This document shows positions 14,903 through 62,681 of a stretch of 64,000 bases of DNA, piece by piece. The notes under the pieces were generated by a model, which saw only the letters and a program-made list of their open reading frames with translations, ran no database searches and was not told the DNA's origin. Each line of letters opens with the position of its first letter. Positions within the stretch are counted from its first letter, which is position 1. A program made the position numbers and the translations under genes. This DNA comes from a virus. Location: positions 6,263 through 70,262 of IMG/VR virus record IMGVR_UViG_3300047476_000779; one strand, given 5' to 3'.

Positions 14903-15169
14903 ATGTCAGATTACAACCGCACATTCAATAACGAAGCTAAAATTAAATTAACTCAATTAGTCAATGAAGGTATGACAACATTACACGAGATTGACGCACT
15001 TAATGGTGGTCTAAACGATACCATTAAGGCTGTAGCAGAGGAATTAGAAATTAAGGCTTCTACACTAAAGAAAGCAATTAAGATTGCGCACAAAGCAAGT
15101 CTCGGTCAGACTAACAAAGACCATGATGAATTGAACACAATTCTAGAAACAGTAGGAAAAACCCTTTAA
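14903..15169 (+). CDS. hypothetical protein
   Basis: 88-aa ORF with RBS AAGGAGAA. Confidence 0.5.
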   Translation: MSDYNRTFNNEAKIKLTQLVNEGMTTLHEIDALNGGLNDTIKAVAEELEIKASTLKKAIKIAHKASLGQTNKDHDELNTILETVGKTL

Positions 15170-19248: not shown

Positions 19249-19637
19249 TTGATTACGTAATTGGTGGCGAGTACCTAAATGTTACTAGTAACAAAGGTGC
19301 TCAGCCTTATATCAACATGTCTAGTAGTCAGCCTATGATAGGAGCATTGTCATACGACCATAACAGTCAACAGATGAAAGTCTATGACGGTAATGGTTGG
19401 ATGACTATTGGTGGTGGTAGTGCTACTGTCAATTTGAATCCAAATGCTATCTCTGCGCTTCAATGGGTAGAACGAAAAATGCGAGAAGAACAAGAACGAA
19501 ATCGACTTGCTGAAACCAATCCGGCTATTAAAGATTTACTTGACCAAATTAAAGAAAAAGAAGAACAACTTAAAATGGTCATGACTCTAATAAATAGCCC
19601 CGGTGACAATGAAATCAAACCTTCAATGGTACCTTAA
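19245..19637 (+). CDS. hypothetical protein
   Basis: 130-aa ORF, Gly-rich with a C-terminal coiled-coil-like segment. Confidence 0.45.
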   Translation: MIDYVIGGEYLNVTSNKGAQPYINMSSSQPMIGALSYDHNSQQMKVYDGNGWMTIGGGSATVNLNPNAISALQWVERKMREEQERNRLAETNPAIKDLLDQIKEKEEQLKMVMTLINSPGDNEIKPSMVP

Positions 19638-21253
19638 TGACACAAGATAACTTATCACAAAAACAAAATCCAGAATGGGCGTTGTTCTTACCAGCAGTGT
19701 CAAGTTTTTACATTAGCGGCTTGGGTAAACAACGTAAGGGTGAACCTTACTTTGACCAAAATCGCATACCTGCAGGATTTAACAATGATGTTGAAAAACT
19801 AAACTTTCTAAATAGCAAAGAAGGTCTGTATTACTACAAGTGGGGTTTGTACTCTGCTGGGCACGCCAACTTAGATACAACAGTTGACGATCCTAGCGAA
19901 AGTATCATACGTGAACGTGAAGAGGGCACGTTCATGTTGGGTGACAGTGGTGGTTTCCAGATTCTAAAATGTCAGTGGCCTGCTGATTGGAAAGATCCTA
20001 ATTGTCCTCGTGCTATGAAAAAGCGTCAACAAGTGTTGACATGGATGGATACGTACATGGACTATGGTATGTGTTTAGATATACCATCACAATCCTTGAC
20101 TACCTTTCATATCAAAGATCCTAAGACAGTTGAAAAAGATAAAGACGGAAAAGTTATCCCTGGCTCAGGTATATCAGCACACGGTATCAGCACGATTGAA
20201 GAAGCTATTACAGCTACCCATATTAACAACGAGTACTTTGTTAAGAATCGTTCGGGTAAATGTAAGTTCTTAAATGTTCTTCAAGGTCGTAATCATACTC
20301 AATCTAATGATTGGTATGCCGAAATGAAGAAATACTGTGATCCAAATGTCTATCCAGACAATCACTTTAATGGTTGGGCATTCGGGGGTCAGAACAAGAT
20401 TGACATTCACTTGATGCTAACCCGTTTAGTTGATATCATCCATGATGGTTTACTACAAGAAGGCAAGCATGATTTGATTCACTGTTTGGGTACTAGTATC
20501 TTAGAATATGCCGTATTGTTTACTGACATTCAGAAAGCAATTCGCAAACATCACAATCCAAAACTAGTTATCACGTTTGACTGTGCTAGTCCATTCTACA
20601 GTGCGGCTAAGGGCCTTGCTTATTTCAATACAACTATTGAGCATAACAAGAAATGGTCTTATCAAATGGAAAAGACTGTTGACGGTAAACAATATGGTGT
20701 GCCTCAATTAGGTCAACCTGGTGGTGACCAACGTAAGTTTCGTGATGCTGTATTAGCAGATGGTTTCCATAAGACATTTACAGATAGTCCAGTTACTGAT
20801 AAACTACTACTTAGGGACGTGTGCTATCGAGGCCAGGGCTTCTTGGGTGCACATCAAAAAGAAACTAAAACCAGTTGGGATACGTTGAGTTACACATTGA
20901 TTCAGTCGCATAATGTTTGGATGCACATGAATGCTGTTCAAGAGGCTAATCGCCAGTATGAACAAGGTGTTGTGCCCAAGATGATTATGCACAAGTTCGA
21001 AGGTGGACAATTCTTTGCTAACTTGGTAGATGAAATCTTTAGTAAGAAAACTAAACAAGAAGCTATCGATTTAATTAACTATCACAGTAGCTATTGGCTA
21101 CAGTTTCAATCAGGCAGTCAAGGAATCAGCGGTAAGAAAACTATCAATGCTATGACAATGTTTGACCAATTATTTGAAGTAGCTGGTGAACCCGAAGTTG
21201 ATGAAGCCATCGAAGATAGTGATGACGCAATGGCAGAAATATTAGGAGAATAA
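19637..21253 (+). CDS. dpdA: TGT-fold guanine transglycosylase (DpdA-like, DNA 7-deazaguanine insertion)
   Basis: LGDSGGFQ matches the tRNA-guanine transglycosylase catalytic DSGGFQ motif. In phages this fold, clustered with folE/queD/queE, is DpdA. Confidence 0.65.
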   Translation: MTQDNLSQKQNPEWALFLPAVSSFYISGLGKQRKGEPYFDQNRIPAGFNNDVEKLNFLNSKEGLYYYKWGLYSAGHANLDTTVDDPSESIIREREEGTFMLGDSGGFQILKCQWPADWKDPNCPRAMKKRQQVLTWMDTYMDYGMCLDIPSQSLTTFHIKDPKTVEKDKDGKVIPGSGISAHGISTIEEAITATHINNEYFVKNRSGKCKFLNVLQGRNHTQSNDWYAEMKKYCDPNVYPDNHFNGWAFGGQNKIDIHLMLTRLVDIIHDGLLQEGKHDLIHCLGTSILEYAVLFTDIQKAIRKHHNPKLVITFDCASPFYSAAKGLAYFNTTIEHNKKWSYQMEKTVDGKQYGVPQLGQPGGDQRKFRDAVLADGFHKTFTDSPVTDKLLLRDVCYRGQGFLGAHQKETKTSWDTLSYTLIQSHNVWMHMNAVQEANRQYEQGVVPKMIMHKFEGGQFFANLVDEIFSKKTKQEAIDLINYHSSYWLQFQSGSQGISGKKTINAMTMFDQLFEVAGEPEVDEAIEDSDDAMAEILGE

Positions 21254-21254
21254 T

Positions 21255-21467
21255 ATGCCGTATACTAGTAGAATTAGAACTCTGGAAGAATCATATAGAT
21301 TAGTAGAGAATCAATTGTTCCAATTAGAGAAGTCAGGTAGCACAGATTCTGATAAAATGACACAATTGCGTGAAGCAAAAGAAAAGTACCTTAATGAACT
21401 ACGTCACATGCGTAGGGCACAATGGGATAATGACCACGAAACTGTTGACCTTGGAGATGATAGATGA
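21255..21467 (+). CDS. hypothetical protein
   Basis: 70-aa ORF. Confidence 0.4.
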   Translation: MPYTSRIRTLEESYRLVENQLFQLEKSGSTDSDKMTQLREAKEKYLNELRHMRRAQWDNDHETVDLGDDR

Positions 21468-21919
21468 ACGAGCAACATGAACAAGCACTTGCTGAACAAC
21501 GAGCAAGAATTAAAGACAAAGCCAAACGAATGATCTGGGTAACCTTCAACAAAGAAGGTATCCATCGCTACCCGGCTGCAAGTACCGACCCGAAACTCGC
21601 ATCGGGTGACGAGTATGATGTTAGCTTCTTGGGTATGCCACACAGACATATCTTCCACTTTACAGTGGGGATTCAAGTATTTCATAATGACCGTGATATT
21701 GAATTCATCCAGTTTAAACGCTGGCTTGAGAACCTTTACAAAGAAGGTACTCTGGAACTCAATTTCAAGTCATGTGAAATGATTAGCGATGACCTTTATG
21801 AACAAATCGCTAGTCGCTATACAGGGCGTGACGTTGAAATCACTGTTTCCGAAGACAATGAAAACGGCGCTACAATCTGTTATAATACAACTCAACCTTA
21901 TCAATCACTCGCTATTTAA
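21464..21919 (+). CDS. hypothetical protein in deazaguanine cluster
   Basis: 151-aa ORF directly downstream of the TGT-like gene. Confidence 0.45.
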   Translation: MNEQHEQALAEQRARIKDKAKRMIWVTFNKEGIHRYPAASTDPKLASGDEYDVSFLGMPHRHIFHFTVGIQVFHNDRDIEFIQFKRWLENLYKEGTLELNFKSCEMISDDLYEQIASRYTGRDVEITVSEDNENGATICYNTTQPYQSLAI

Positions 21920-21933
21920 AAGGAAATATTAAA

Positions 21934-22143
21934 ATGGCAAAACCAAAACTCTCCGGTACTTTCAGCACTGAGAATCGCATTTTTGATGACTTGGAAAAGT
22001 ATCTAGAATTCTGTCAAGACTTCGGATACAAATATGACGAATCAACACTATACGACATGCGTAGTTTCGTATTCCGTCAATATCAAAAACATGCCTCAGG
22101 CAAACAAGCTAAGTACTGCTGGGAAGAAGCAATTATTCGATGA
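21934..22143 (+). CDS. hypothetical protein
   Basis: 69-aa ORF with RBS AAGGAAATA. Confidence 0.4.
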   Translation: MAKPKLSGTFSTENRIFDDLEKYLEFCQDFGYKYDESTLYDMRSFVFRQYQKHASGKQAKYCWEEAIIR

Positions 22144-22898
22144 AAATAGTAATTGTCACTGGTGGGTTCGACCCACTACACAGCGGACACATTGAATATT
22201 TCAAGGCCGCACGACAACTCGGTGATATGTTAATCATCGGGTTGAACAGTGACGAATGGTTGACTCGTAAAAAAGGTCAACCTTTTATGCCTTTCACTGA
22301 ACGCTTGTCAATTGTCCGTAATTTAAATATGGTAGATTGGGTTATCGATTTTGATGACTCTGACAATAGCGCAATATGTGCGATTCAGAAAGTAAAAGAA
22401 CGATACCCTAACGACAATATTATTTTTGCCAACGGCGGAGACCGTACCAAAGACAATATACCTGAAATGATTTTTGAAGATGTAGATTTCATGTTTGGGG
22501 TAGGTGGAAATGACAAAATGAATTCAAGTAGCTGGATTCTACATGAATGGAAAAACCCGAAAACCGTGAGGTCATGGGGTTATTATCGTATACTACATGA
22601 TGTACAGGGCTGTAAGGTTAAAGAATTGACTGTAGATCCGGGGAAAAGTTTAAGCATGCAACGACACAAACAACGCAATGAATATTGGTTAGTTAGTGAG
22701 GGTAAATGTGATGTGTTATCAATGATGAACAACGGATACAAATTACCAACACAAACATTAACACAGCACAACTCATATAAAATTCCTGCAGGTGATTGGC
22801 ATCAGCTAAGTAATCCATATAGCGAACCGTGTAGAATTGTAGAAATTCAATATGGTGAGTTATGTGTAGAAGAAGATATAGAAAGAAAAGATGCGTAA
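22140..22898 (+). CDS. HldE-domain-II-like heptose-1-phosphate adenylyltransferase fused to a cupin domain
   Basis: IVTGGFDPLHSGHIEYFKAARQLGDMLIIGLNSDEW closely parallels RfaE/HldE domain II (GCFDILHAGH...VAVNSD). The C-terminus has the cupin pattern (RHKQRNEYWLVSEGK ... PAGDWHQLSNP). Confidence 0.65.
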   Translation: MKIVIVTGGFDPLHSGHIEYFKAARQLGDMLIIGLNSDEWLTRKKGQPFMPFTERLSIVRNLNMVDWVIDFDDSDNSAICAIQKVKERYPNDNIIFANGGDRTKDNIPEMIFEDVDFMFGVGGNDKMNSSSWILHEWKNPKTVRSWGYYRILHDVQGCKVKELTVDPGKSLSMQRHKQRNEYWLVSEGKCDVLSMMNNGYKLPTQTLTQHNSYKIPAGDWHQLSNPYSEPCRIVEIQYGELCVEEDIERKDA

Positions 22899-24078
22899 AT
22901 TATATTACATGGGCCTAGAACCCTACAAAGCACGTTACACCCTTCAACTAACAGAGTGGAATGAACGTGTATTTAAACTACGAGGCATCAATTATGAAAT
23001 CGTGCCCGGAGATACTCTTTCAACTGACCAGCAAATCGTAACAGGTCAAGTGCTTGATGCGCACGGCCGTAGTTATTTTGGTATGAGTCAGTTGATGAAC
23101 TTAGTTAAATTGATGAAGGAAGGTAAGGTAACCAGTGAAGATGTTATCTACTTTGAAGACATGTTCCAGCCGGGCTTTGAAGCGTTGCCTTATATTCTTA
23201 ATCAAGTGCCCGAGACACATCGTCCAAAACTCTTTGCTCGTTGCCTCGCGCAGTCTATCGATCCTGACGATTTTGTCCATGTCTGGGGAATGTCGCGGTG
23301 GATGGGCCTCTACGAGAAAATGGTTTGTGAGGCAGTACGTGACAGTGGCGGTGCAATCCTTGCGACTAATGAAGAAATGGTCATGAATATGAAGATCGCA
23401 GGCTGGGAAGCCCCGATCTACAATATCAGTGGTTTAGCATTCGGTAAAGATGAAGTACAGAGTCGTGTAGGTACTATCAAACCATTCAGTGAACGCAAAC
23501 ATCGTGTTGTTTTTTCAGCACGTTGGGATCAAGAGAAGCAACCAGACTTCTACATGGATATTATTGAAGCATATTTCAAACGTCATCCTGTCAGTGCTGT
23601 TGAATTTTGTGTCTGCGCTGGCAGTAAATTAAAGTCTAACAATGACAGCTATATGGAACGTACCCGTACCTTACAATCTATCGGATTGCTTAAAGTTTAT
23701 GAGGATCTAGAAAAGAATGCTTATTATAATATTGTCAACGATAGCCGTGTTGTATTTAATTGTGCGTTACAAGACTGGGTCTCGAATACTGTCTCGGAAG
23801 CTGATGCTCTTGGTTGTAACGTCCTATATCCTGCTTATCGTAGTTTCCCTGAAACTTTTGCCAACGATGCCACTAGAATGTACATACCTTGGTCTATCGA
23901 GGATGCCCTTGATAAGCTGGAACGGTTGCTAAAGAAACCCAGTGAATACATGGGAGCAATATCAGATTATAACAATGGTACGATTGATCGTATCGTTGAT
24001 ATACTAGAAGGCGGTGGACAGAGTATGTTGAGAATGTCTACCGATTACAGAAAACATACCCGCGAATCAAAATATTAA
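22891..24078 (+). CDS. GT-B fold glycosyltransferase (GT4-like)
   Basis: C-terminal RVVFSARWDQEK ... SEADALGCNVLYP matches the GT-B donor-binding region (E-x7-E like). Confidence 0.5.
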   Translation: MRKLYYMGLEPYKARYTLQLTEWNERVFKLRGINYEIVPGDTLSTDQQIVTGQVLDAHGRSYFGMSQLMNLVKLMKEGKVTSEDVIYFEDMFQPGFEALPYILNQVPETHRPKLFARCLAQSIDPDDFVHVWGMSRWMGLYEKMVCEAVRDSGGAILATNEEMVMNMKIAGWEAPIYNISGLAFGKDEVQSRVGTIKPFSERKHRVVFSARWDQEKQPDFYMDIIEAYFKRHPVSAVEFCVCAGSKLKSNNDSYMERTRTLQSIGLLKVYEDLEKNAYYNIVNDSRVVFNCALQDWVSNTVSEADALGCNVLYPAYRSFPETFANDATRMYIPWSIEDALDKLERLLKKPSEYMGAISDYNNGTIDRIVDILEGGGQSMLRMSTDYRKHTRESKY

Positions 24079-24088
24079 GGAGAAAATT

Positions 24089-24286
24089 ATGAGCGCACAT
24101 GACGATATCAAAACACAATTGGCAGCATACGAAGCCGAAAATGACAAGTTCGTTAAAGGTAATGCGGCAGCAGGCACACGTGCCCGCAAAGCATTAGCAG
24201 AACTAGCTAAAGCGGTTAAAGCACGCCGTAATGAAATTACAGCAGAAAAAGCTGCACGTGCTGAAGAAAAAGCAAAGGCTAAGTAA
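24089..24286 (+). CDS. small Ala/Lys-rich basic protein (nucleoid-associated/histone-like?)
   Basis: 65 aa: GNAAAGTRARKALAELAKAVKARR ... AEEKAKAK. Confidence 0.4.
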   Translation: MSAHDDIKTQLAAYEAENDKFVKGNAAAGTRARKALAELAKAVKARRNEITAEKAARAEEKAKAK

Positions 24287-24288
24287 TC

Positions 24289-24483
24289 ATGGCAACCCGC
24301 AAAACTAAAAAAGTTGCGGGTCCCTCTGTAGTTAAAGGGACCCATCTAACAGTCACAACTGACGAAAATGGTAAAACAACACTAGAGTGGGATGACGAAC
24401 AACTGTTGAAAGAAGTTCGTGAAGCCATTGCTAGCGTGACAGAGGCACCCGTAAAAAAGTCTCGAAAAAAGAAGTCAGCATAA
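24289..24483 (+). CDS. small basic protein
   Basis: 64 aa with Lys-rich termini. Confidence 0.4.
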   Translation: MATRKTKKVAGPSVVKGTHLTVTTDENGKTTLEWDDEQLLKEVREAIASVTEAPVKKSRKKKSA

Positions 24484-24547
24484 ATAAGTATGTCACACAA
24501 CGGTGACAACAATACAAAACTCATATCCGCGTAAGGAAGGATTCTAT

Positions 24548-25225
24548 ATGTCATATAACAAAACAAAAACCGACCCCGAATTAGGTCAACAAGTTCACGA
24601 ACATCTGGTTAAGATGGGTGTTGAAACTCCAATAAAAAAACGTAATCTAGATCGAAAAGAACAGATTGATATCATTGAAGGTAACTTTGCTGAAATCATG
24701 CGAGTTTTAGGGTTAGATTTAACTGATGACAGTCTTATTGATACGCCAAAACGTGTTGCTAAGATGTATGTCAATGAAATTTTCTGGGGTTTAGATTATG
24801 AAGCATTTCCAAAGTGTACCACCGTTGACAATAAAATGCACTACAACGAAATGGTCGTTGAGCGTAACGTGTCAGTACAAAGTAATTGCGAACATCATTT
24901 TGTTGTTATCGACGGCTTGGCTACTGTTGCTTATGTTCCTAAGCAAAAGGTACTTGGTCTGTCAAAAATCAACCGCATTGTTGAATATTTCAGTAAACGG
25001 CCTCAAATACAAGAGCGACTTACTGAACAAATCTTCCATACCCTACAATATATACTTGAGACTGAAGATGTAGCAGTTATGATTGACGCACAGCACTATT
25101 GTGTAAAATCACGTGGTGTAGAAGATACAGGTTCAAGTACAGTTACTTGTCGCTTAGGTGGCGGATTCAAGACTGACCCTGCGGCACGTGCCGAATTCTT
25201 ACAGATTGCTAACAAGGGTAAGTAA
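24548..25225 (+). CDS. folE: GTP cyclohydrolase I (FolE)
   Basis: SNCEHHFVVIDG ... YVPKQKVLGLSKINRIVEYFSKRPQIQERLT is the classic FolE signature. ATG at 24548 with an AAGGAAGG RBS. The ORF track starts it at GTG 24503. Confidence 0.9.
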   Translation: MSYNKTKTDPELGQQVHEHLVKMGVETPIKKRNLDRKEQIDIIEGNFAEIMRVLGLDLTDDSLIDTPKRVAKMYVNEIFWGLDYEAFPKCTTVDNKMHYNEMVVERNVSVQSNCEHHFVVIDGLATVAYVPKQKVLGLSKINRIVEYFSKRPQIQERLTEQIFHTLQYILETEDVAVMIDAQHYCVKSRGVEDTGSSTVTCRLGGGFKTDPAARAEFLQIANKGK

Positions 25226-25425
25226 TGATTACCGAACACTTTAAAAAACAAATAGAAGCAGGCACTGAAATCTTCTTCTATGGATTAGAAAGAACACCTG
25301 AACAAGAAGGCGGTATCGTTGCCAGCATTATGAGACACAAAGGATCATTGGATAGTTTCCCCACTAATCTAGAGTTTGTTAGGATGATGACTGAAAATAC
25401 TCCGTTGTTTAAGGAAGTAGCATGA
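25225..25425 (+). CDS. hypothetical protein
   Basis: 66-aa ORF overlapping the folE stop. Confidence 0.4.
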   Translation: MITEHFKKQIEAGTEIFFYGLERTPEQEGGIVASIMRHKGSLDSFPTNLEFVRMMTENTPLFKEVA

Positions 25426-25449
25426 TAAACCTACTAATAATTTTAGTCG

Positions 25450-25815
25450 TTGTCGCAATCGCTGTGTCAATCGTTCGTAGATTACCCGGTGGATGTCAGC
25501 GTGATTGCAATCAGGGGCGTAACTGTGACTGCCAAGACAAGCGTTGAACTTATTCAAGAAGCCGCAGAACGGATCAGAAATGATCCTGTAAAGCTCAAAG
25601 AGTTCATGCGTAAGGTCATGGGCCCTCCCAAACGAGTACTAGAAGGTGCCGAGCGTGAGCATATGCTTACTGTGTTCAAACTCATCGAACCAGTACGCAC
25701 AACAAACAATCAAAGGTCATTCACTGATGAATATGTACATGCCGGAAAGATGTATGATGTTCATTATTTTGAAGGTGAAACAGTAGTAGAGGAATATTTA
25801 GATGAGGAATCTTAA
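25450..25815 (+). CDS. hypothetical protein (start uncertain)
   Basis: 121-aa ORF. A 41-aa membrane ORF (25422..25547) overlaps its 5' end in another frame. Confidence 0.35.
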   Translation: MSQSLCQSFVDYPVDVSVIAIRGVTVTAKTSVELIQEAAERIRNDPVKLKEFMRKVMGPPKRVLEGAEREHMLTVFKLIEPVRTTNNQRSFTDEYVHAGKMYDVHYFEGETVVEEYLDEES

Positions 25816-25993
25816 ATTAGTTGACGCAGTAATCGCACTGCATGAGATTCGTAGAACAGTAGAAGAAGAATGCGGTAAGTGTAGACTAAGCATAGAGATT
25901 GAACGCATCGCAGATCAGTTACATCAAATGTCTATTCAAGATGCCAAGAACGTTGTAGTTGTTAAAGACATTATCAACAAGGCAAAAGAATGA
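25802..25993 (+). CDS. hypothetical protein
   Basis: 63-aa ORF. Confidence 0.35.
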   Translation: MRNLKLVDAVIALHEIRRTVEEECGKCRLSIEIERIADQLHQMSIQDAKNVVVVKDIINKAKE

Positions 25994-26463
25994 TATTCAA
26001 CCATGTTAAAAAACTTAAACAAGAAGGCAAGCGTATTGGAATCACGTTTAGCACATTTGACTTGCTACATGCGGGACATATTGCTATGCTTAGTGAGGCA
26101 AGAAACCACTGTGACTACCTCATATGCGGTCTTCAAACAGACCCCACTATCGATAGGCCAGAGACTAAGAATAAACCGATACAAAGTATTGTCGAACGTC
26201 AGATACAACTGGCGGCTTGCCGTTATGTTGATGAAGTTGTTGTGTACAGTACCGAACAAGACTTGGTTGACCTCTTACTTATTCTCCCGGTCGATGTTAG
26301 AATTCTCGGCGTCGAATATGCTGACAAAAATTTCACCGGCAAAAGTGAGTGCGACCTCAGAGGGATCGACATTGTATACAACGGTAGAGATCACTCCTTT
26401 AGTTCCAGTAGCTTACGTAAACGTGTCTATGATAGTGAGTCCAACAAAAGAGGACAACAATGA
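25990..26463 (+). CDS. cytidylyltransferase-like nucleotidyltransferase (HldC/TagD-like)
   Basis: GITFSTFDLLHAGHIAMLSEAR contains the GxFDxxHxGH motif. Confidence 0.7.
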   Translation: MIFNHVKKLKQEGKRIGITFSTFDLLHAGHIAMLSEARNHCDYLICGLQTDPTIDRPETKNKPIQSIVERQIQLAACRYVDEVVVYSTEQDLVDLLLILPVDVRILGVEYADKNFTGKSECDLRGIDIVYNGRDHSFSSSSLRKRVYDSESNKRGQQ

Positions 26464-26765
26464 GTAATTTTTACGATTCATTCATGAGTAAATTCGGTGT
26501 CAAACATGTCAGGACATTGCGAGACCGTGATTACCGAACGATCAATTACGGTACTTATAATCAAACTGCTAGTTACTATGCTGACCGTGACGAACTAATT
26601 GAAATGGAACTCACACGCACTGGTTTTGAAAATTTAGTAAATCTAGACCACGAGACTGAAAAGGTATGGCAAGACCAGCGTGATGAAGCATACTTGCGTA
26701 GAACATACCCTGCAGTAGCAGAAGCGTATAGTAAATATAAAATGCTTTTGGAACTATATAAGTAA
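26460..26765 (+). CDS. hypothetical protein
   Basis: 101-aa ORF. Confidence 0.45.
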   Translation: MSNFYDSFMSKFGVKHVRTLRDRDYRTINYGTYNQTASYYADRDELIEMELTRTGFENLVNLDHETEKVWQDQRDEAYLRRTYPAVAEAYSKYKMLLELYK

Positions 26766-26805
26766 AATTTGGTAAATAGATATAGCGGTCTCGGCGTCAT
26801 CCCGC

Positions 26806-26834
26806 TTGAAAAATTCTGCCGCCTATGCTACAAT
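26806..26834 (+). promoter_or_regulatory. sigma70-like promoter TTGAAA-17-TACAAT upstream of queD
   Basis: -35 at 26806-26811, -10 at 26829-26834. ATG at 26851 with an AGGAGAAAAT RBS. Confidence 0.5.
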
Positions 26835-26850
26835 TAACATAGGAGAAAAT

Positions 26851-27351
26851 ATGCATAATCCAATTACATACAAATATACAAGTACTAAAGAGTACCATGA
26901 CGCATTCCCATGCGCTTATCGTCAGTGGCGTGCTGACAGTCATTGTAATACTATTCACGGTTATAGTTTCAGTATGAAATTCTATTTCGGTACAAACGAT
27001 TTAGACGTTCGTAACTGGGCAGCCGATTACGGTGGGTTGAAAGAACTGAAAAAGATTCTTGAGGATCAGTTTGACCACACATTGTTAGTAGCACAAGATG
27101 ACCCTGAACTTGAAACATTCAAACTGTTACAAGAAAAGAAGATGGCTAAACTAACTATTTTGCCTCGCTTAGGTTGCGAAAGTCTTGCTGATATGCTTTA
27201 CAAATATGTCAATGGTGTTTACATCCCTGATATGTGGGGTGAAGGTGAAGCAAAGCGTCTATGGTGCTATCGTGTTGAAGTACGTGAGACACAGAGCAAC
27301 ATGGCTTTCCGTGAAGGTCACCGAGAATGGAATGAGGACTTGTTTACATGA
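26851..27351 (+). CDS. queD: 6-carboxy-5,6,7,8-tetrahydropterin synthase (QueD)
   Basis: CNTIHGYSF (Cx3HGH-type) and FDHTLL motifs of the QueD/PTPS family. Confidence 0.8.
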   Translation: MHNPITYKYTSTKEYHDAFPCAYRQWRADSHCNTIHGYSFSMKFYFGTNDLDVRNWAADYGGLKELKKILEDQFDHTLLVAQDDPELETFKLLQEKKMAKLTILPRLGCESLADMLYKYVNGVYIPDMWGEGEAKRLWCYRVEVRETQSNMAFREGHREWNEDLFT

Positions 27352-27545
27352 ACAAACTAACATATGATGAATGGCTTGAAAAATGCGGTGGGAAGTTGAA
27401 AGATAATCAATTTCAGACCGCGCAAGAAATGATATCCGATTTTCAGAAATTTCACAGACTATCTTTACAAGACGAAATTGATATGATAAATCAATCAGAA
27501 TATCAGTTATATCTACAGCGAGTTGATGCAGGAGTTGAAGAATGA
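27348..27545 (+). CDS. hypothetical protein
   Basis: 65-aa ORF. Confidence 0.4.
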   Translation: MNKLTYDEWLEKCGGKLKDNQFQTAQEMISDFQKFHRLSLQDEIDMINQSEYQLYLQRVDAGVEE

Positions 27546-28717
27546 CAAAAACTGTAGCAGTCATCGGTGCCGGTATTACCGGTATCACTACAGCATATTA
27601 CCTTGCTAAAAAAGGTTATAGTGTAACTGTCTACGAACAAGAACCACATGCGGCAATGCGTACTAGCTTTGCCAATGGTGGACAAATATCAGTTAGTAAC
27701 AGTGAAGTCTGGACTACATGGAGTAACGTCAAGAAGGGCATCAAGTGGCTCTTTAAGAAAGATGCTCCGTTGTTGATTCGTCCTCGTTTAGATTATCGTC
27801 AATGGAAGTGGATCGCAAAGTTTCTATACAATACTGCTACAAATCAGTATGAAAAGAACACTAGCGAAACAATTAAGATGGGTCTAGAATCTAGTAAGTT
27901 GTACAAAGAAATTATGTACACAGAAAAACTAAGTTTTGACCAATCACCTTCAGGTATTCTTCACTTCTACAAAGATAAACAATACTTTGAAGCCGCAAAA
28001 CAAGCACAATACATCTATCGTAAGAACGGTTGTGAGTGGGATATAGTTGACACACAACGAGTTAAGGAGTTAGATAGTACACTAGAAAATGTTGAGGGTA
28101 TCGTAGGTGGTGCGTGGACATTGGGTGATTGGACTGGTGACATTCATAAGTTTTGTATAGACCTTGAGCGTGTGTTGAAGAAGAAATACGGAGTAACTTT
28201 TATTTACAATTCAGTAACTACTAAAGATACAATGCTACAATTAGTCAATTTGTATGATGCTGTAGTTGTATGTGCAGGTGTAGGTAGTGTTGACATTGCT
28301 AACAGTGTAGGTGATACGTTAGACATTTACCCAGTCAAAGGTTACAGTATTACTATCAATAACGTAGATAAGAAACATTTGCCTGTCGTTAGTTTGTTAG
28401 ATGACCAAGCAAAGATTGTTACTGCAAGTTTAGGTAATCGTTTCCGTGTTGCAGGTACTGCTGAACTAGCAGGTGAGAACTATGATATCCGTCATGATAG
28501 AGTCAAGCCATTGCTAGATTGGGTAAGAACTAATTTCCCTAATATGGATACTAGTGATTACAGTAGTTGGGCATGTCTCAGGCCAATGACTCCGAACATG
28601 ATGCCTATTACCAAACGTAGTGACAAGAATGATAAAGTGTACTATAATACAGGACATGGTCACTTAGGTTGGACATTAGGTCCAGTAACAGCAAAACAAA
28701 TTGCGGAAATGATATGA
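27542..28717 (+). CDS. FAD-dependent oxidoreductase, D-amino-acid dehydrogenase (DadA)-like
   Basis: VAVIGAGITGITTAYYLAKKGYSVTVYEQE (GxGxxG). Along its length it matches DadA blocks (IKWLF...APLL, YPVKGYSITI, LRPMTP, NTGHGHLGWT). Confidence 0.7.
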   Translation: MTKTVAVIGAGITGITTAYYLAKKGYSVTVYEQEPHAAMRTSFANGGQISVSNSEVWTTWSNVKKGIKWLFKKDAPLLIRPRLDYRQWKWIAKFLYNTATNQYEKNTSETIKMGLESSKLYKEIMYTEKLSFDQSPSGILHFYKDKQYFEAAKQAQYIYRKNGCEWDIVDTQRVKELDSTLENVEGIVGGAWTLGDWTGDIHKFCIDLERVLKKKYGVTFIYNSVTTKDTMLQLVNLYDAVVVCAGVGSVDIANSVGDTLDIYPVKGYSITINNVDKKHLPVVSLLDDQAKIVTASLGNRFRVAGTAELAGENYDIRHDRVKPLLDWVRTNFPNMDTSDYSSWACLRPMTPNMMPITKRSDKNDKVYYNTGHGHLGWTLGPVTAKQIAEMI

Positions 28718-29562
28718 GTCAAATAAAAATTTCAGAATTATTCTATTCAATTCAAGGTGAAGGTAAATTCATGGGAGTCCCGAGTGTGTTTTTACGCACG
28801 TTCGGGTGTAACTTTGAATGTAATGGCTTTGGGTTGTCTAAAGGTGAAAAGAGTACAGAGAGAGATACAATTGCGATTAAAGCAGAAACTTATACAGATT
28901 ATAAATCCTTACCGCTTGTCAGCACGGGATGTGATAGTTATGCATCTTGGGACCCTCGTTTCAAACATCTTAGTCCTGTGCTCGATTCCGATACTATTGC
29001 TAACAGCATTGTTGATACACTTCCTCGAGGTCGTTGGATGGATGAGCACTTGGTTATCACGGGCGGCGAACCGCTTCTCGGATGGCAAAGAGCGTATCCT
29101 GACTTACTTTCGCACGATAAGATGAAATCATTGAAGGAGATGACGTTTGAGACAAACGGCACTCAACATATAAGTGAGGACTTCACTAAGTATCTACGTG
29201 AATGGCAACGTAATCGTGCTAAAGATGCGATTACATTCAGTGTAAGTCCTAAACTCAGTATCAGCGGTGAAAAGTGGGAAGATGCTATCTGTCCCGAAGT
29301 TATCGCACAATACAAGGTTCATGGTTTCGTATATCTCAAATTTGTTGTAGCAACTAAAGAAGATGTGAAAGAAGCTGAACAAGCAGTAGATGAGTATCGC
29401 AAGAAAGGTTTTACTGGTCCTGTATACTTGATGCCATGCGGTGGCGTTGAATCTATCTATAGTTTGAATGCACGTAACGTAGCAATTGAAGCGATGAACC
29501 GAGGTTGGCGCTATAGTGATAGACTACAAGTGCCGTTGTTTAAGAATGAATGGGGTACATGA
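28714..29562 (+). CDS. queE: 7-carboxy-7-deazaguanine synthase (QueE, radical SAM)
   Basis: FYSIQGEGKFMGVPSVFLRTFGCNFEC and HLVITGGEPLL parallel E. coli QueE (FQTLQGEGYFTGVPAIFIRLQGC ... VVITGGEP). ATG 28714 overlaps the upstream stop. Confidence 0.8.
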   Translation: MSQIKISELFYSIQGEGKFMGVPSVFLRTFGCNFECNGFGLSKGEKSTERDTIAIKAETYTDYKSLPLVSTGCDSYASWDPRFKHLSPVLDSDTIANSIVDTLPRGRWMDEHLVITGGEPLLGWQRAYPDLLSHDKMKSLKEMTFETNGTQHISEDFTKYLREWQRNRAKDAITFSVSPKLSISGEKWEDAICPEVIAQYKVHGFVYLKFVVATKEDVKEAEQAVDEYRKKGFTGPVYLMPCGGVESIYSLNARNVAIEAMNRGWRYSDRLQVPLFKNEWGT

Positions 29563-29747
29563 TGACACAAGTAGTAATTACACGAACACAATATGAACGA
29601 CTACGTGAAGTATTTGAAATGTACGACAGCGTAGATCGTATAGTTTGGAAGCAGGAATCAGTAAGTGGGATTGGTCCTAATGTTACTATTGAGTTTGATC
29701 CAAAAGAAACAGTCAAATTAGATATCACTGATGTGGAGAGTTGGTAA
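29550..29747 (+). CDS. hypothetical protein
   Basis: 65-aa ORF. Confidence 0.35.
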   Translation: MGYMMTQVVITRTQYERLREVFEMYDSVDRIVWKQESVSGIGPNVTIEFDPKETVKLDITDVESW

Positions 29748-29974
29748 TGGAAGACGGACCTCAAACATATGATCCATTCAAGCATAGATGTATTGGCACT
29801 GAATACAAGTTTACTTGGTTACCGCAGACGTGCCACATCACCGGAAAAAAGTTGTGGCTAAAACATGCGTATAGACAAACAGCAATGATTGTGGGCCCTG
29901 GAGACTCTATATTTGATTTTCGATGGTACCAAAAGGATGCGTTCTTGATAGCAAGATTAAAAGGTATAGTATGA
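29741..29974 (+). CDS. hypothetical protein
   Basis: 77-aa ORF. Confidence 0.35.
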   Translation: MVMEDGPQTYDPFKHRCIGTEYKFTWLPQTCHITGKKLWLKHAYRQTAMIVGPGDSIFDFRWYQKDAFLIARLKGIV

Positions 29975-31323
29975 AATTGTATAGTAAACGAATCGCATTT
30001 TTAATCAGTGACCAGCATTTTATTCCGCATGGTGGCATCGGTAGTTTCTGTAAGAGTTTTACAGAAATGTCTAGTAGACTAAACTGGAAAGTTGATATTA
30101 TACTTGACAAAGCTCCAAACAATGACAGGTTTAAAGATTTAATTGAAGAAGCTGGTGCCAATATCATATGGCCTTTAGAACCACTGCGATACAACAATCA
30201 CACCGCAACATTTGCGTTTAGTGACACTATCAACTTTGAAAAGATTATCAACTTCCGTACAGCATTGTTGGAAGCATTTGAAGAAAATGTATACGACATG
30301 ATTGTGTGTAACACACAAGAAGCAATGACAGCGGCATATGCTATGACAGTCAACAAGTATATTCCTGTTGTGTTCTATACACATTTACATTCAATGATTT
30401 TCCGCGACAGTCAAGGTAGCGATGTGTTTTTAGACAGTTATCATAACTTCTATAACAAGCACATGGAATTCACTGATATCATCATTGGTACACAGAGTCA
30501 AAAGAACATCGATGAATTAACAAAATACGGAGCAACTAATTGTCAGTTGCTTCCCATGCCCATGAGCGAACGCGGGTTGCTCACTGAGAGTGGATTGACT
30601 AGTAAAGGCGTATTATTCATCGGCCGCTGGGAAGAAGGCAAGAACCCAGAAGCATACATTCGTGCTATGAAAGAATGCCAGTTGCCCTGTAAAGTAATGA
30701 CTAATAGTAACGGTGCTAAGAAATTTGAGAAGGCATTTGCTGAGGCAGGTATCACTGACTACGAAATTCGTGCAGGCATTACCGGACAAGAGAAAGTAAA
30801 TTTCATTCATAGTGCTAGCGTGTTCTTTATGCCCAGCTTGCGTGAGAACTATCCTTTCGCATTCTTAGAATGCTTGGGTCATATGCCTTGCGTAGTTTTA
30901 GATTCACAAGATTGGTCAGACAACTTTGATAGCAAGTATTTTCACAAAGTCAATATCAAAGATGCCGGTAACAAAATCAAAGAACTGTATGGGTCAGCGC
31001 AAGTCAATGGTGCGTTAGACTATGTAAAACAACTTGACTATCAGGTAGCTTTCAAATGGAATAAGTTCTTAGATGATTTTGTAGGGAAACGTAGTAATAC
31101 TAATGCCGCTAAGATTAACACATTTGAAACAGTCAAGTATCGTGACTATATTAAAGATTTAGAGCGAAAACATCTAGCACGTGAAGATTTTGAATCTGTG
31201 CTATCAAACAAATATAAGTTTACTACTGTTTGGTACACTGATACAGATACCTATCTTAGCAAAGATCCAACTTATAAACCAGTAGAGGAAGAAACAGGAT
31301 TGAGCCTGTTCGAGGGACTATGA
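29971..31323 (+). CDS. GT-B fold glycosyltransferase (GT4-like)
   Basis: ATG 29971 overlaps the upstream stop. C-terminal FIGRWEEGKNPE ... PSLRENYPFAFLECLG resembles the GT-B donor-binding region. Confidence 0.5.
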   Translation: MKLYSKRIAFLISDQHFIPHGGIGSFCKSFTEMSSRLNWKVDIILDKAPNNDRFKDLIEEAGANIIWPLEPLRYNNHTATFAFSDTINFEKIINFRTALLEAFEENVYDMIVCNTQEAMTAAYAMTVNKYIPVVFYTHLHSMIFRDSQGSDVFLDSYHNFYNKHMEFTDIIIGTQSQKNIDELTKYGATNCQLLPMPMSERGLLTESGLTSKGVLFIGRWEEGKNPEAYIRAMKECQLPCKVMTNSNGAKKFEKAFAEAGITDYEIRAGITGQEKVNFIHSASVFFMPSLRENYPFAFLECLGHMPCVVLDSQDWSDNFDSKYFHKVNIKDAGNKIKELYGSAQVNGALDYVKQLDYQVAFKWNKFLDDFVGKRSNTNAAKINTFETVKYRDYIKDLERKHLAREDFESVLSNKYKFTTVWYTDTDTYLSKDPTYKPVEEETGLSLFEGL

Positions 31324-32144
31324 AAAAAATCTTAATTACAGGAAACAGCGGATACATCGGTAGTCATTTGACTAAGATGTTAAAAGATGAATATATTATT
31401 CATGGCATGGATATGAATCAACCACAGATTCAACCAGTTACTCATCATTATAATGACATTCGCAAGCCTATTGATATAGCAGAAGAATATGATTGTGTCA
31501 TTCATTTGGCTGCTTTAGTTAATGTAGGTGAAAGTGAACAGATCCCTATTCAATACTACATTACTAATTTAAATGGTACAATGAATGTATTGAACAAGAT
31601 CAAGACTAAGAATTTTGTCTTTGCGAGTACAGGTGCCGCAGTAGGTTGTGAAAGTGCTTATGGTATTAGTAAACGTGCCGCCGAAGATGTAGTATGTGAA
31701 TATTGTACCGCGCACAATCCAAAAGACTATACAATCTTTAGGTTCTACAATGTGATTGGTAGTGATGGATTCGCTCCAACTAATCCCGATGGATTAATGT
31801 ATAACTTATTGAAAGCTAAAGAATCAGGTGAGTTTACTATCTTTGGTAAAGACTATGATGTAAGTCCTGACGGAACATGTATTCGTGATTATGTTCACGT
31901 AAATGAGATTTGTGATGCTTTAAAGCAAGCGATTGAAAAGCCAAGTTACAAGGTAGAATCATTGGGACATGGTGTAGGTTATACTGTTCGTGAGATTGTT
32001 AGTATGTTTCAGAACGTAAATGATACAGACTTTGATGTAAAATACGGCCCAAGAAGAAAGGGCGACCTTGCTAGTAGTGTACTAGAAGATGTGTCGCCCT
32101 ATATGCGTAACTTGTATACGATGGAACAGTTGTTAAAAGTTTAA
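31320..32144 (+). CDS. NAD-dependent sugar epimerase/dehydratase (extended SDR)
   Basis: ILITGNSGYIGSHL is a Rossmann GxxGxxG. YGISK is the catalytic YxxxK. Confidence 0.7.
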   Translation: MKKILITGNSGYIGSHLTKMLKDEYIIHGMDMNQPQIQPVTHHYNDIRKPIDIAEEYDCVIHLAALVNVGESEQIPIQYYITNLNGTMNVLNKIKTKNFVFASTGAAVGCESAYGISKRAAEDVVCEYCTAHNPKDYTIFRFYNVIGSDGFAPTNPDGLMYNLLKAKESGEFTIFGKDYDVSPDGTCIRDYVHVNEICDALKQAIEKPSYKVESLGHGVGYTVREIVSMFQNVNDTDFDVKYGPRRKGDLASSVLEDVSPYMRNLYTMEQLLKV

Positions 32145-32800
32145 CTTCCCCAACCTGCGAAGAACGGATCACTGATAACAATCTCTCCGTCACTTCCTAA
32201 CATGAAGTTACCACTGTGTAGGTCTAGATTTCCTAGACCTATTTTTCTAGCTACTTTCTTCAAGTCAGTGATTGTATCCCATAGTTTATTGAAACCATCT
32301 TCACCAACTAGTGTCATAAGTTTATTGAAGTTGTCTGTGTTTTGCTGACCCCAACTCCTATTCTCATAGCCCTTCATGAAGTCTTGTTTTTGTTTTGGGC
32401 TATTACCGCGCTCTGCTTTATCAGCAAGATGTGATAACACATAATTCATGCCACTAGCACCTTTTGTGAAAGGGAACAATCTTTCCATCTTAATTTGTAG
32501 ATAAGGTTTTCCCTTATAGTGGAATAGATTCCAGTCACTAAACTGAGGCAAGAAAGGGTTGTCACTATTTGCCTTGCAATAGTCTGCGTATGCTTTGAAT
32601 GTCTTTTGTGATCTTGTTAATTGAATGCTACCTTGTTTGGCGCGACTACTAGTACCAAAGATTTTCAGTATCATACCATCAGGGGCTAAGTAAGCAGTTT
32701 GGTCAACGCCACTGCCTAATTTTTTATAGCCCTTTTGCCTAAGGATGCCATCGATACTTCTATCTGTGTATGCTTCTGATAAAAATTCTTCTGCTCTCAT
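32141..32800 (-). CDS. CTS-bearing protein kinase-like protein
   Basis: N-terminus MRAEEFLSE. GSGVDQTAYLAPDGMILKIF (Gly-loop + K), LDLHSGNFML (catalytic-loop-like D..N) and ISDPFFAG (DFG-like). Confidence 0.5.
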   Translation of the reverse strand: MRAEEFLSEAYTDRSIDGILRQKGYKKLGSGVDQTAYLAPDGMILKIFGTSSRAKQGSIQLTRSQKTFKAYADYCKANSDNPFLPQFSDWNLFHYKGKPYLQIKMERLFPFTKGASGMNYVLSHLADKAERGNSPKQKQDFMKGYENRSWGQQNTDNFNKLMTLVGEDGFNKLWDTITDLKKVARKIGLGNLDLHSGNFMLGSDGEIVISDPFFAGWGS

Positions 32801-62680: not shown

Positions 62681-62681
62681 A

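Follow-up and report, generated by a model that had tools for sequence, protein, structure and literature searches.

Why does a phage keep genes for the activation and transfer of sugars among genes for 7-deazaguanine synthesis? The sequence-only reading of the window (the whole stretch of 64,000 nucleotides analysed here) had proposed a DNA glycosylation system at 22140-32144, an interpretation that is partly supported overall. Profile searches recovered every gene named within this region, with coordinates and domain content as given. Two upstream calls fared less well. In the HxGH nucleotidyltransferase at 1568-3046, the domain was confirmed in the first ~90 residues only (E 6.5e-6), and the assignment of the whole is less secure. 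The same applies to the GT-A glycosyltransferase at 3097-3996, which has a DAD motif and matches STIV A197 at E 0.018.

The genes belong to a single co-directional block (19637-32144) in what we read as a giant phage (Table 1). The block starts 5' of the region originally described, with the DpdA-like gene and the gene for DpdL. DNA polymerase and clamp genes precede it, UvdE, RNase H and ligase genes follow, and a hairpin lies at its junction with convergent minus-strand genes. When the block genes were compared, homologues in the same order were found at 50-90% identity in 80 viral contigs, indicating that the ORFs are real genes and not chance. All 81 loci encoding the first glycosyltransferase (GT1) in this phage family are syntenic. 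The small conserved ORF of unknown function, which also occurs in the marine lineage, overlaps the start of the following gene by 4 bp.

Table 1. Features of the co-directional block and its downstream boundary.
Feature	Coordinates	Strand	Evidence or occurrence
DpdA-like (TGT-superfamily) DNA transglycosylase, long form, 538 aa	19637..21253	+	
DpdL, QueD paralogue, proposed 7-carboxy-7-deazaguanine decarboxylase	21464..21919	+	motif, identities
Conserved 69-aa ORF of unknown function, DpdL-GT interval	21934..22143	+	68/81 loci
HIGH-type nucleotidyltransferase + type-II phosphomannose-isomerase cupin fusion (NT-cupin)	22140..22898	+	profile matches
GT1, GT-B (GT4-like, retaining-type) glycosyltransferase, conserved DpdL/DpdA partner	22891..24078	+	
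FolE (GTP cyclohydrolase I)	24503..25225	+	PF01227, E 4e-61
NT2, small HIGH-type (cytidylyl/adenylyl) transferase	25990..26463	+	CTP_transf_like / rfaE_dom_II / TagD-like
QueD (CPH4 synthase)	26806..27351	+	PF01242, E 7.5e-17; phrog_2389
DadA-like FAD oxidoreductase (DAO), rare accessory insert	27542..28717	+	NF009074, 451 bits; 5/81 loci
QueE (7-carboxy-7-deazaguanine synthase)	28714..29562	+	phrog_2076, E 1.6e-53; TIGR03365
GT2, second GT-B (GT4-like) glycosyltransferase	29971..31323	+	Glycos_transf_1 sub-threshold, family consensus
GalE-like NDP-hexose 4-epimerase (short SDR)	31320..32144	+	TIGR01179, E. coli GalE
Terminator-like hairpin closing the block	32218..32242	+	10-bp stem, then T run

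FolE, QueD and QueE are encoded in between the sugar and glycosyltransferase genes. With DpdL and the DpdA-like protein they form the 7-deazaguanine (dDG) gene set of the phiST type, complete in the window. The likeness to the phiST system (Cui et al. 2023, PMC10516641) goes beyond these same five functions: QueC is absent, DNA polymerase is adjacent, the TGT-superfamily enzyme is divergent, and DpdL carries the diagnostic LxxxHRHxF pattern (here LGMPHRHIFHF; PMC10516641). DpdL of the window is 71% identical to its counterpart in Phosso, 61% to that of PA5oct, and 55% to ASD50405 of ACP17. The ACP17 dpdL expressed in PMC10516641 was given without accession; ASD50405 is the ACP17 gene beside QueE. 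In that study the decarboxylase role of DpdL was a proposal, and its reconstitution failed (PMC10516641). Motifs are the basis of the DpdA-like assignment, together with a weak hhalign score and a model of medium confidence; DpdA (7ui4) is the top structural match. Compared with the DpdA3 set of ACP17, BUDD and BUCT-ZZ01, not with phiST DpdA3 itself, the protein is ~100 aa longer and very divergent, and it gave no BLAST or HMM match to this set.

Since the window encodes DpdL and the scan of its ORFs turned up no QueC, the base is predicted, by analogy with phiST, to be plain 7-deazaguanine. The deazaguanine side chain that had been suggested as a sugar acceptor is therefore not borne out. A plain base offers no obvious hydroxyl acceptor, so that a sugar would have to be linked as an N- or C-glycoside, or elsewhere.

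Of all block proteins, GT1 is the best conserved. Its conservation exceeds that of DNA polymerase (mean 78% vs 76%), and most clearly so in the distant subclade (74-79% vs 59%). The fold is a GT4-like GT-B, in which the donor-binding and D/Ex7E residues are invariant in both subtypes. For GT2, matches to Glycos_transf_1 were sub-threshold but consistent (14 of 23 family members), and the start at 29971 proved correct, since the family consensus opens with MxxYxKRIGFLIS. GT2 is 42% identical to a FolE-adjacent gene of BUCT-ZZ01, and 31-35% identical to a gene of Roseobacter-group islands bearing GT1-like and DpdA-like genes.

The sugar-activation genes are less constant. The NT-cupin protein matches CTP_transf_like at residues 6-105 (E 3e-14), rfaE_dom_II (TIGR02199, E 4e-22, under the family cutoff) and, at residues 141-250, the PMI-type cupin PF01050 (74 bits, over the cutoff). 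Matches to it occur in 41 of the 81 loci, but only ~23 are 250-259-aa fusions, the rest being cross-hits to the small NT2-type gene, and the fusion is thus accessory, as are GT2 and DAO. NT2 and the SDR are common to the freshwater and marine lineages, and NT2 shares 61% identity with its counterpart in the equivalent cluster of marine relatives. Since the NT2 family also contains cytidylyltransferases for glycerol-phosphate and ethanolamine-phosphate, the donor could be something other than a sugar. The epimerase is GalE-like (TIGR01179, E 5e-45; E. coli GalE, E 3e-29). Other sugar genes differ by lineage: marine relatives have phosphomannomutase and a cupin, while the clusters of a second freshwater subclade encode a 4,6-dehydratase, a DegT aminotransferase, a radical-SAM enzyme and a methyltransferase. 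Of the heptose- or hexose-type sugar initially proposed, the sugar genes point to the hexose, and the heptose is not supported: the epimerase is GalE-like, not HldD-like, the scan of window ORFs yielded neither GmhA nor a heptose kinase or phosphatase, and relatives carry phosphomannomutase and PMI-type cupins.

At least 7 phage lineages, and mobile islands of Alphaproteobacteria, have relatives of GT1 adjoining DpdL and a DpdA-type gene, and the pairing of glycosyltransferase and deazaguanine genes is found in more than 10 independent contexts. GT1-type genes directly flank DpdL and/or DpdA-type genes in ACP17, BUDD/X1, BCSR5, the PA5oct group, Phosso and the cyanophage BUCT-ZZ01. Of 80 loci in the marine lineage, 79 have DpdL and 74 a DpdA-like gene; among 39 loci from genome collections (8 of them phage-like contigs that had been binned into MAGs, the remainder mostly alphaproteobacterial chromosomal islands), the numbers are 21 and 33. 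Many of these islands bear a tyrosine recombinase and a Vut_1/YhhQ-type transporter, and both islands examined in detail (n = 2) have defence-type neighbours. These data support the view, as had been claimed, that sugar module and deazaguanine genes are functionally linked and not chance neighbours. The reappearance of this pairing in bacterial islands and in many unrelated phages suggests that a sugar-decorated purine, so far undescribed, may occur in DNA. PA5oct encodes the trio of GT1-like, DpdL and DpdA-like proteins; its DNA resists restriction enzymes with G-containing sites and is targeted by modified-G-sensing nucleases (PMC12191111).

From the gene identities, folds and conserved linkage observed here, we infer the following scheme. 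FolE, QueD and QueE would convert GTP into 7-carboxy-7-deazaguanine, DpdL would take off the carboxyl group, and the DpdA-like transglycosylase would exchange guanine in phage DNA for 7-deazaguanine. This half corresponds to the system demonstrated in Cellulophaga phage phiST (PMC10516641). In the other half, the phage itself would make an activated hexose: a manno-hexose phosphate may be turned into an NDP-sugar by the PMI-type cupin and the HIGH-type nucleotidyltransferases, and then be epimerised by the GalE-like enzyme. GT1 would transfer the sugar to deazaguanine-containing DNA, or to the deazaguanine base just before insertion, and GT2 might add a second or alternative sugar. Transfer of a phage-made NDP-hexose onto deazaguanine-containing DNA is our best reading, with about an even chance of being right, and we judge it evenly balanced whether 19637-32144 is one DNA-hypermodification operon of two joined halves. 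If so, a sugar-bearing purine would shield phage DNA from nucleases, as glucosyl-hydroxymethylcytosine does in T4.

We found no published description of such a glycosyltransferase/deazaguanine system, and each known relative differs from it. In contrast to phiST, the window operon incorporates a GT-B glycosyltransferase and sugar-nucleotide genes. T4 draws on host UDP-glucose, whereas this phage encodes its own sugar activation; the predicted base is a purine inserted by base exchange and not via the nucleotide pool, and T4 AGT and BGT show no sequence similarity to the window enzymes, with generic GT4 enzymes scoring higher. Vertebrate mannosyl- and galactosyl-queuosine of tRNA (QTMAN/GTDC1, QTGAL/B3GNTL1) likewise involve a 7-deazaguanine derivative that is inserted by TGT and later glycosylated. 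QTMAN/GTDC1, a glycosyltransferase named for its action on tRNA queuosine, belongs to the GT4-type GT-B enzymes and uses activated mannose. There, however, the sugar sits on the cyclopentenediol hydroxyls of queuosine, whereas here the base is predicted to have no side chain and the target is presumably DNA; the comparison with GTDC1 is by description. In the huimycin/dapiramicin pathway, the GT4-type enzyme HuiG puts a sugar on a 7-deazaguanine-derived base made by FolE, QueD and QueE, but the product is an actinomycete free-base compound from preQ0, with QueC present and no nucleic-acid insertion enzyme. HuiG and QTMAN/GTDC1 are precedents for GT4-type enzymes acting on 7-deazaguanine compounds. 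The Salmonella Dpd modification-restriction islands (DpdA/B/C) share the mobile setting and a DNA-guanine transglycosylase; here the partner is a glycosyltransferase, and neither DpdB, DpdC nor restriction components were identified beside GT1-type genes, apart from a CoiA-nuclease-like neighbour in Magnetospirillum.

HuiG, which N-glycosylates a free 7-deazapurine base, also raises the possibility that the acceptor of GT1 is a small pathway molecule (7-deazaguanine as free base, nucleoside or nucleotide) and not DNA, which we consider unlikely. The product could be short-lived, to be used next by a phosphoribosyltransferase or by the DpdA-like enzyme, or it could be a metabolite in its own right, for example a storage form or a nucleoside-analogue toxin. 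Clusters of many relatives do contain a phosphoribosyltransferase and a HIT protein, resembling the tubercidin route from CDG. GT1 is an acidic protein (pI 5.6), and acidic or aromatic side chains occupy most of the invariant positions in its N-domain, a pattern that would suit a guanine-like ligand; these features would also fit a small-molecule acceptor. Moreover, heterologous DpdL plus DpdA gave no dDG (PMC10516641). However, phiST reaches 100% replacement with plain dDG without a GT1 homologue (PMC10516641), and none lies near DpdL in RHph_I1_18 and D479, indicating that the glycosyltransferase is not needed for insertion, a point that counts against our best reading as well. Its tightest conserved partner is the DNA transglycosylase (the 33 of 39 loci above), and a secreted or toxic metabolite would have no obvious use on a mobile island without base-synthesis genes.

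Transfer to deazaguanine-containing DNA must also be weighed against remodelling of the host envelope (LPS, capsule) or glycosylation of virion proteins, with the deazaguanine genes adjacent merely as further early accessory genes in a variable region. Similar HIGH-nucleotidyltransferase/cupin/GT clusters of jumbo cyanophages were read as capsule or O-antigen modification (Iyer et al. 2021, PMC7824862), and sugar-tailoring genes here vary among related phages, like glycan loci, the NT-cupin gene, GT2 and DAO being accessory. We nevertheless regard this as quite improbable, given the many independent pairings, bacterial islands included, and the ACP17-like contigs, in which the entire operon is FolE-DpdA3-GT-DpdL-QueE with 4-bp stop/start overlaps and no other sugar gene. 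Neither GT1 nor GT2 has a hydrophobic segment indicating a membrane anchor (19-residue hydropathy maxima 0.71 and 0.96), the ORF scan yielded no flippase, Wzy/Wzx or GtrA/B genes, and the block is located in the replication region and not among the structural genes.

That the enzymes glycosylate another base, such as a T-even-like hydroxymethylated pyrimidine whose synthesis genes would lie outside the window, is very unlikely: the window covers 64 kb of a genome of probably >300 kb and has a 2OG-Fe(II) oxygenase at 17935-18501, but this gene occurs in just 6 of 81 loci, the scan of window ORFs yielded none resembling thymidylate synthase or dCMP hydroxymethylase, which speaks against the earlier suggestion of hmC as acceptor, ACP17-type compact operons and bacterial islands hold the glycosyltransferase with deazaguanine genes only, and the PA5oct restriction data indicate a modified G (PMC12191111). 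Cultured carriers of a GT1-type gene are PA5oct, ACP17, BUCT-ZZ01 and Phosso.

Downstream of the DNA polymerase, the plus strand carries a co-directional block of genes (19637-32144) for deazaguanine synthesis, sugar activation and glycosyl transfer. All the genes that the sequence-only reading, which proposed DNA glycosylation, had named within 22140-32144 were present as described, on domain and family evidence. The start of the operon had been missed, however, and with it the two upstream genes encoding a DpdA-like protein and DpdL.

Positions of the features discussed, in the window and in loci of relatives (L numbers)
Source	Position	Feature
Window	1568-3046	nucleotidyltransferase-domain gene
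Window	3097-3996	putative GT-A glycosyltransferase
Window	4157-6067	large multi-domain protein
Window	9503-9943	ferritin-like protein
Window	9940-11487	large multi-domain protein
Window	11484-12608	large multi-domain protein
Window	14254-14850	TilS-type PP-loop ATPase
Window	15169-17877	family-B DNA polymerase
Window	17935-18501	2OG-Fe(II) oxygenase (PF13640)
Window	19637-21253	DpdA-like protein
Window	21464-21919	DpdL
Window	22140-22898	NT-cupin (nucleotidyltransferase-cupin fusion)
Window	22891-24078	GT1 (GT-B glycosyltransferase)
Window	24089-24286	small basic protein
Window	24289-24483	small basic protein
Window	24503-25225	FolE
Window	25450-25815	small ORF
Window	25990-26463	NT2 (small nucleotidyltransferase)
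Window	26460-26765	small ORF
Window	26806-27351	QueD
Window	27542-28717	DadA-like D-amino-acid dehydrogenase
Window	28714-29562	QueE
Window	29741-29974	small ORF
Window	29971-31323	GT2 (second glycosyltransferase)
Window	31320-32144	SDR (GalE-like epimerase)
Window	32218-32242	terminator-like hairpin
Window	53723-54925	ClpX homologue
Window	58751-59395	ClpP homologue
Window	60521-63692	rIIA and rIIB
L086	10524-11445	purine phosphoribosyltransferase/HIT
L089	9873-11254	purine phosphoribosyltransferase/HIT
L053	18794-19327	purine phosphoribosyltransferase/HIT
L001	7093-7554	purine phosphoribosyltransferase/HIT
L085	12324-12758	purine phosphoribosyltransferase/HIT
L196	3036-4622	MASE1-type sensor histidine kinase
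L200	4658-6304	MASE1-type sensor histidine kinase
L200	9561-11318	585-aa protein

FolE, QueD and QueE, by which a phiST-type 2'-deoxy-7-deazaguanine (dDG) system is recognized, are all encoded in the window, and no match to QueC (PF06508) was found among the scanned ORFs of the 64-kb stretch. DpdL is defined as a paralogue of QueD that carries LxxxHRHxF in place of CxxxHGH, and was proposed to be a 7-carboxy-7-deazaguanine decarboxylase (Cui et al., PMC10516641). The window protein bears this phiST-type signature as LGMPHRHIFHF, and is 55% identical to the product of the ACP17 gene adjoining QueE, 61% to that of PA5oct and 71% to that of Phosso. Neither DpdL nor the DpdA-like protein gave any match in Pfam, NCBIfam or PHROG, and PDB-chain sequence searches with the DpdA-like family returned nothing usable. 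The alignment of this family shows the TGT hallmarks DSGGFQ, LDIPS, VLQG, GWAFGG, HCLGTS and FDCASPF, and hhalign places the TGT motifs in register with DpdA3 of ACP17, BUDD and BUCT-ZZ01 (E 0.006). With FolE, QueD, QueE, the DpdL signature and the TGT-hallmark protein present and QueC not found, the deazaguanine half is predicted to be a complete gene set belonging to the phiST-type dDG system, but with a divergent transglycosylase. In phiST, this type of system replaces all dG by 2'-deoxy-7-deazaguanosine (PMC10516641).

GT1 is a GT-B enzyme with two Rossmann-like domains and is structurally similar to GT4 enzymes. Its C-terminal E/Dx7E motif is formed by D295 and E303 (QETLGIxxYE in the ACP17-type subfamily), and the basic donor-phosphate ligands of the R...EK donor-binding motif, R211, E215 and K216, were invariant in 70 sequences; the E/Dx7E motif, too, does not vary in GT1. 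No Pfam, NCBIfam or PHROG match above threshold was obtained for GT1, the Pfam scan gave no match to DUF3524, which the queuosine glycosyltransferase QTMAN/GTDC1 combines with a GT1 domain, and PDB-chain sequence searches with GT1 and GT2 returned nothing usable. GT2 showed consistent but sub-threshold matches to the GT4 family (14 of 23 family members), and the start codon assigned to it earlier agreed with the family consensus. The glycosyltransferase half would work similarly to T4 glucosylation and to mannosyl-queuosine formation in tRNA, yet it has no sequence membership in the T4 enzyme families; T-even AGT or BGT enzymes accompanied by a hydroxymethylcytosine pathway were not what we found. 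Two genes further upstream had been noted as well: in the first, a nucleotidyltransferase domain was recovered in the first ~90 residues only, and for the second a DAD motif and similarity to A197, a GT-A protein of viral origin (E 0.018), tentatively suggest a GT-A enzyme.

The NT-cupin combines a HIGH-superfamily nucleotidyltransferase (PF01467, CTP_transf_like fold) with a phosphomannose-isomerase cupin of type II, which scores 74.3 bits to PF01050 (cutoff 23.6) and matches positions 357-461 of TIGR01479. Bifunctional PMI-GMP enzymes (ManC/AlgA) share this C-terminal cupin but carry an N-terminal NTP_transferase guanylyltransferase domain (GlmU/RmlA-like) in place of the HIGH-superfamily domain; the architecture is analogous rather than homologous. 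NT2 belongs to the same nucleotidyltransferase family as the N-terminal domain of the fusion, its nearest solved relatives being the ethanolamine-phosphate (ECT) and glycerol-3-phosphate (TagD) cytidylyltransferases, and the SDR is a short, GalE-like protein with GxxGxxG and YxxxK motifs. A heptose, one of the two sugar types suggested earlier, was not borne out: the nucleotidyltransferases reached only 78-82 bits with rfaE_dom_II, whose cutoff is 181.5, the SDR matched GalE (E 5e-45) far above the heptose epimerase (E 5e-13), and GmhA, the kinase and the GmhB phosphatase were not found among the scanned window ORFs, leaving the ADP-heptose set of GmhA, HldE, GmhB and HldD incomplete. The PMI-type cupin-nucleotidyltransferase fusion, together with a phosphomannomutase in relatives, points to a phage-made NDP-hexose of the manno/galacto type; the donor may instead be glycerol- or ethanolamine-phosphate.

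An IMG/VR scan with GT1 yielded at least 599 stretches, all encoding relatives, the best 80 at 74-89% identity; in the protein database, GT1 relatives form at least 7994 clusters. Two GT1 subfamilies comprise thousands of 90%-identity clusters each, from freshwater and marine metagenomes. In the best 80 of the at least 599 loci, gene order was constant: DNA polymerase, clamp-like gene, small ORF, DpdA-like, DpdL, small ORF, (NT-cupin), GT1, FolE, NT2, QueD, (DadA-like), QueE, GT2, SDR, where brackets mark genes that are not always present. The NT-cupin is accessory, the full-length fusion occurring in about 23 loci of the family. GT1 was the most conserved protein of the block in these best 80 loci (mean identity 78%), and in a distant subclade with a polymerase only 59% identical it still reached 74-79%. 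There, NT2, GT2 and SDR are replaced by a CmcI-like methyltransferase, an NDP-hexose 4,6-dehydratase, a radical-SAM enzyme and a DegT-type aminotransferase, and a phosphoribosyltransferase is also present. The gene pairing is widespread, not rare, and the glycosyltransferase is more conserved than the adjacent DNA polymerase.

The same linkage was observed in other phages. BUCT-ZZ01, a freshwater cyanophage (Kyanoviridae), has in one row QueE, a phosphoribosyltransferase, QueD, FolE, a GT2 homologue (42% identical to that of the window), DpdA3, DpdL and a GT1 homologue (64%). A divergent GT1 subtype, ~21% identical to the window GT1 yet ranking second among viral proteins in its structural match to it, adjoins DpdL and a DpdA-type gene in ACP17, BUDD/X1, BCSR5, eleven PA5oct-like phages and Phosso. 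The PA5oct homologue of GT1 is EST35_0317. Nothing but FolE-DpdA3-GT-DpdL-QueE, with overlapping stops and starts, makes up the operon of ACP17 and two environmental relatives; a locus search with the single ACP17 GT sequence gave no match besides ACP17. Marine relatives of the window phage form a lineage in which the polymerase is followed by an NT2 orthologue (61%), in some cases a phosphomannomutase, then an epimerase, the clamp, DpdA-like (51%) and DpdL (65%); next come a small ORF, GT, phosphoribosyltransferase, HIT protein, FolE and QueE, with a cupin in some cases. Among 80 loci of this lineage, whose cut contigs make all counts lower bounds, DpdL occurred in at least 79, the DpdA-like gene and the phosphoribosyltransferase in at least 74 each, SDR in at least 50, NT2 in at least 41, the cupin in at least 36 and phosphomannomutase in at least 24. 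In many relatives, the deazaguanine cluster contains a purine phosphoribosyltransferase gene, often with a HIT-family gene; none is present in the window. By analogy with tubercidin biosynthesis, these genes hint at a nucleotide-level branch, which would lie outside the model proposed below. The glycosyltransferase is absent from some DpdL phages: phiST has no homologue (Cui et al., PMC10516641), and none was found within 8 kb on either side of DpdL in RHph_I1_18 and D479.

Prokaryotic genomes, one per species, were scanned with the type-A GT alignment A6, which gave 39 loci; the mixed alignment A3 proved unsuitable because its sequences were too diverse. Eight loci (L175-L182) come from phage-like contigs that had been binned into MAGs, and the remainder are mostly chromosomal islands of Alphaproteobacteria (Magnetospirillum, Pelagibacterium, Devosia, Ochrobactrum, Methylobacterium, Aurantimonas, Shimia, Sulfitobacter and others); Magnetospirillum aberrantis SpK and Shimia ponticola are among the carriers. 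The GT is adjoined by a DpdA-like gene in 33 of the 39 loci and by DpdL in 21; a Vut_1/YhhQ-type transporter is found in 17, a tyrosine recombinase in ~16, and a GT2 homologue in five Roseobacter-group loci. In the two islands studied in detail, a HEPN protein, a CoiA-nuclease-like protein and an ABC-3C system are among the neighbours. A MASE1-type sensor histidine kinase is encoded in 13 loci, from both Magnetospirillum and Roseobacter-group islands, at a distance of a few genes on the upstream side of the GT1-like/DpdA-like pair; given this neighbour, DNA modification in the islands is possibly regulated. The 585-aa protein, encoded 3' of the DpdA-like gene in 8 alphaproteobacterial islands and having no Pfam or PDB match, is possibly a further component, a candidate restriction or reader subunit.

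The reading that we favour, at about even confidence, is that a phage-made NDP-hexose would be moved by GT1 onto deazaguanine DNA or base, with GT2 varying the decoration. FolE, QueD and QueE lead from GTP to CDG. The analysis establishes gene identity, folds and linkage, while the steps that would follow are inferred: DpdL would remove the carboxyl group, the DpdA-like enzyme would exchange guanine in DNA for 7-deazaguanine, GT1 would use the phage NDP-sugar to place a hexose on that DNA, or on the base directly before insertion, and GT2 would extend or vary the decoration. The weak point of this mechanism is its chemistry. Since 7-deazaguanine has no hydroxyl group, the linkage would probably be an N- or C-glycoside, attachment at another site being the further option; HuiG makes an N-glycoside at the 2-amino group of a deazapurine. 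More tentatively, GT1-type enzymes may put the hexose directly on 7-deazaguanine in double-stranded DNA, in which case the DpdA-like/GT pair would be a portable two-enzyme DNA-marking unit.

The phosphoribosyltransferase and HIT genes in the clusters of relatives, as well as the acidic acceptor domain of GT1, would suit a glycosyltransferase acting on a small-molecule acceptor inside the pathway, which we consider unlikely. Envelope or virion glycosylation, as similar clusters were read by Iyer et al. (PMC7824862), is quite unlikely given the compact operons of the ACP17 type, the location of the block in the replication region and the absence of membrane segments: no 19-mer with a hydropathy above 1.6 occurs in any module protein (GT1, 0.71; GT2, 0.96). 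Surface-glycan partners as in Gtr-type systems (a membrane-embedded GT, flippase or polymerase) were not found among the Pfam families of the block. Glycosylation of another base is very improbable, as no hydroxymethylase was found in the window and PA5oct restriction data indicate modified G (PMC12191111).

A literature search found no description of glycosylated deazaguanine in DNA or of a glycosyltransferase in a deazaguanine DNA system. To our knowledge, the known DNA glycosylations are all on pyrimidines (glucosyl- and arabinosyl-hydroxymethylcytosine, base J). Eight 7-deazaguanine derivatives are known in DNA, none of them sugar-bearing (PMC10516641). If the favoured reading, glycosylation of deazaguanine, is true, the combination would potentially represent a new chemical class of DNA modification, which would matter for restriction, CRISPR and sequencing chemistry. 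On the more tentative reading of direct transfer to the base in double-stranded DNA, no glycosylated purine would have preceded it in any genome; the DpdA-like/GT pair would then serve thousands of aquatic phages as anti-restriction armour and the mobile islands of Alphaproteobacteria as a self-mark, possibly within a modification-restriction system. The proposal also bears on the identity of the modified G in PA5oct-like jumbo phages and on the puzzle of why ACP17 DpdL and DpdA3, expressed in E. coli, gave no dDG, for which other enzymes may be required (Cui et al., PMC10516641). In ACP17, the GT gene sits between the genes assigned here as DpdA3 and DpdL. Since cultured phages carry the pairing, the proposal is directly testable in them.

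With Megablast, none of 50,697 phage records matched the block. At the DNA level this is a new phage, and the window comes from a large T4-related phage without a close sequenced relative. Its DNA polymerase shares 43-49% identity with the polymerases of four jumbo phages (Phosso, Atu_ph07, RaK2 and CBB). Besides rIIA and rIIB, the window encodes ClpX, ClpP, DNA ligase, RNase H and UvdE. Most adjacent genes from 21934 to 32144 overlap by 4-8 bp, and the hairpin lies at the block end, where the block runs into convergent genes. Promoter-like matches were at chance level (58 observed against 55.4 expected); therefore, no claim about transcription units is built on them.

Between GT1 and FolE, two small and very basic proteins (pI 9.75) are encoded, the first rich in alanine and lysine and 84% conserved in 29 loci; both look like histone-H1-like DNA binders. 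The three small ORFs within the module, kept in 17, 12 and 32 of 81 loci in order of position, could be accessory subunits. The DadA-like gene between QueD and QueE (451 bits to NF009074) occurs in only 5 of 81 related loci and is thus probably a recent bacterial acquisition. The oxygenase encoded between the polymerase and the clamp-like gene occurs in just 6 related loci and could hydroxylate nucleic acids or proteins. Directly upstream of the polymerase, and in 22 related loci, lies the gene for the PP-loop ATPase; it was considered as a hidden QueC and rejected because it matches TilS-type PF01171 (E 4e-31) and gave no QueC match; tRNA or a DNA base may be its substrate. Among the three large multi-domain proteins, one has DUF5661 and a weak nucleotidyltransferase match, one has a weak GNAT match, one is GH19 chitinase-like, and DUF6934 is common to two.
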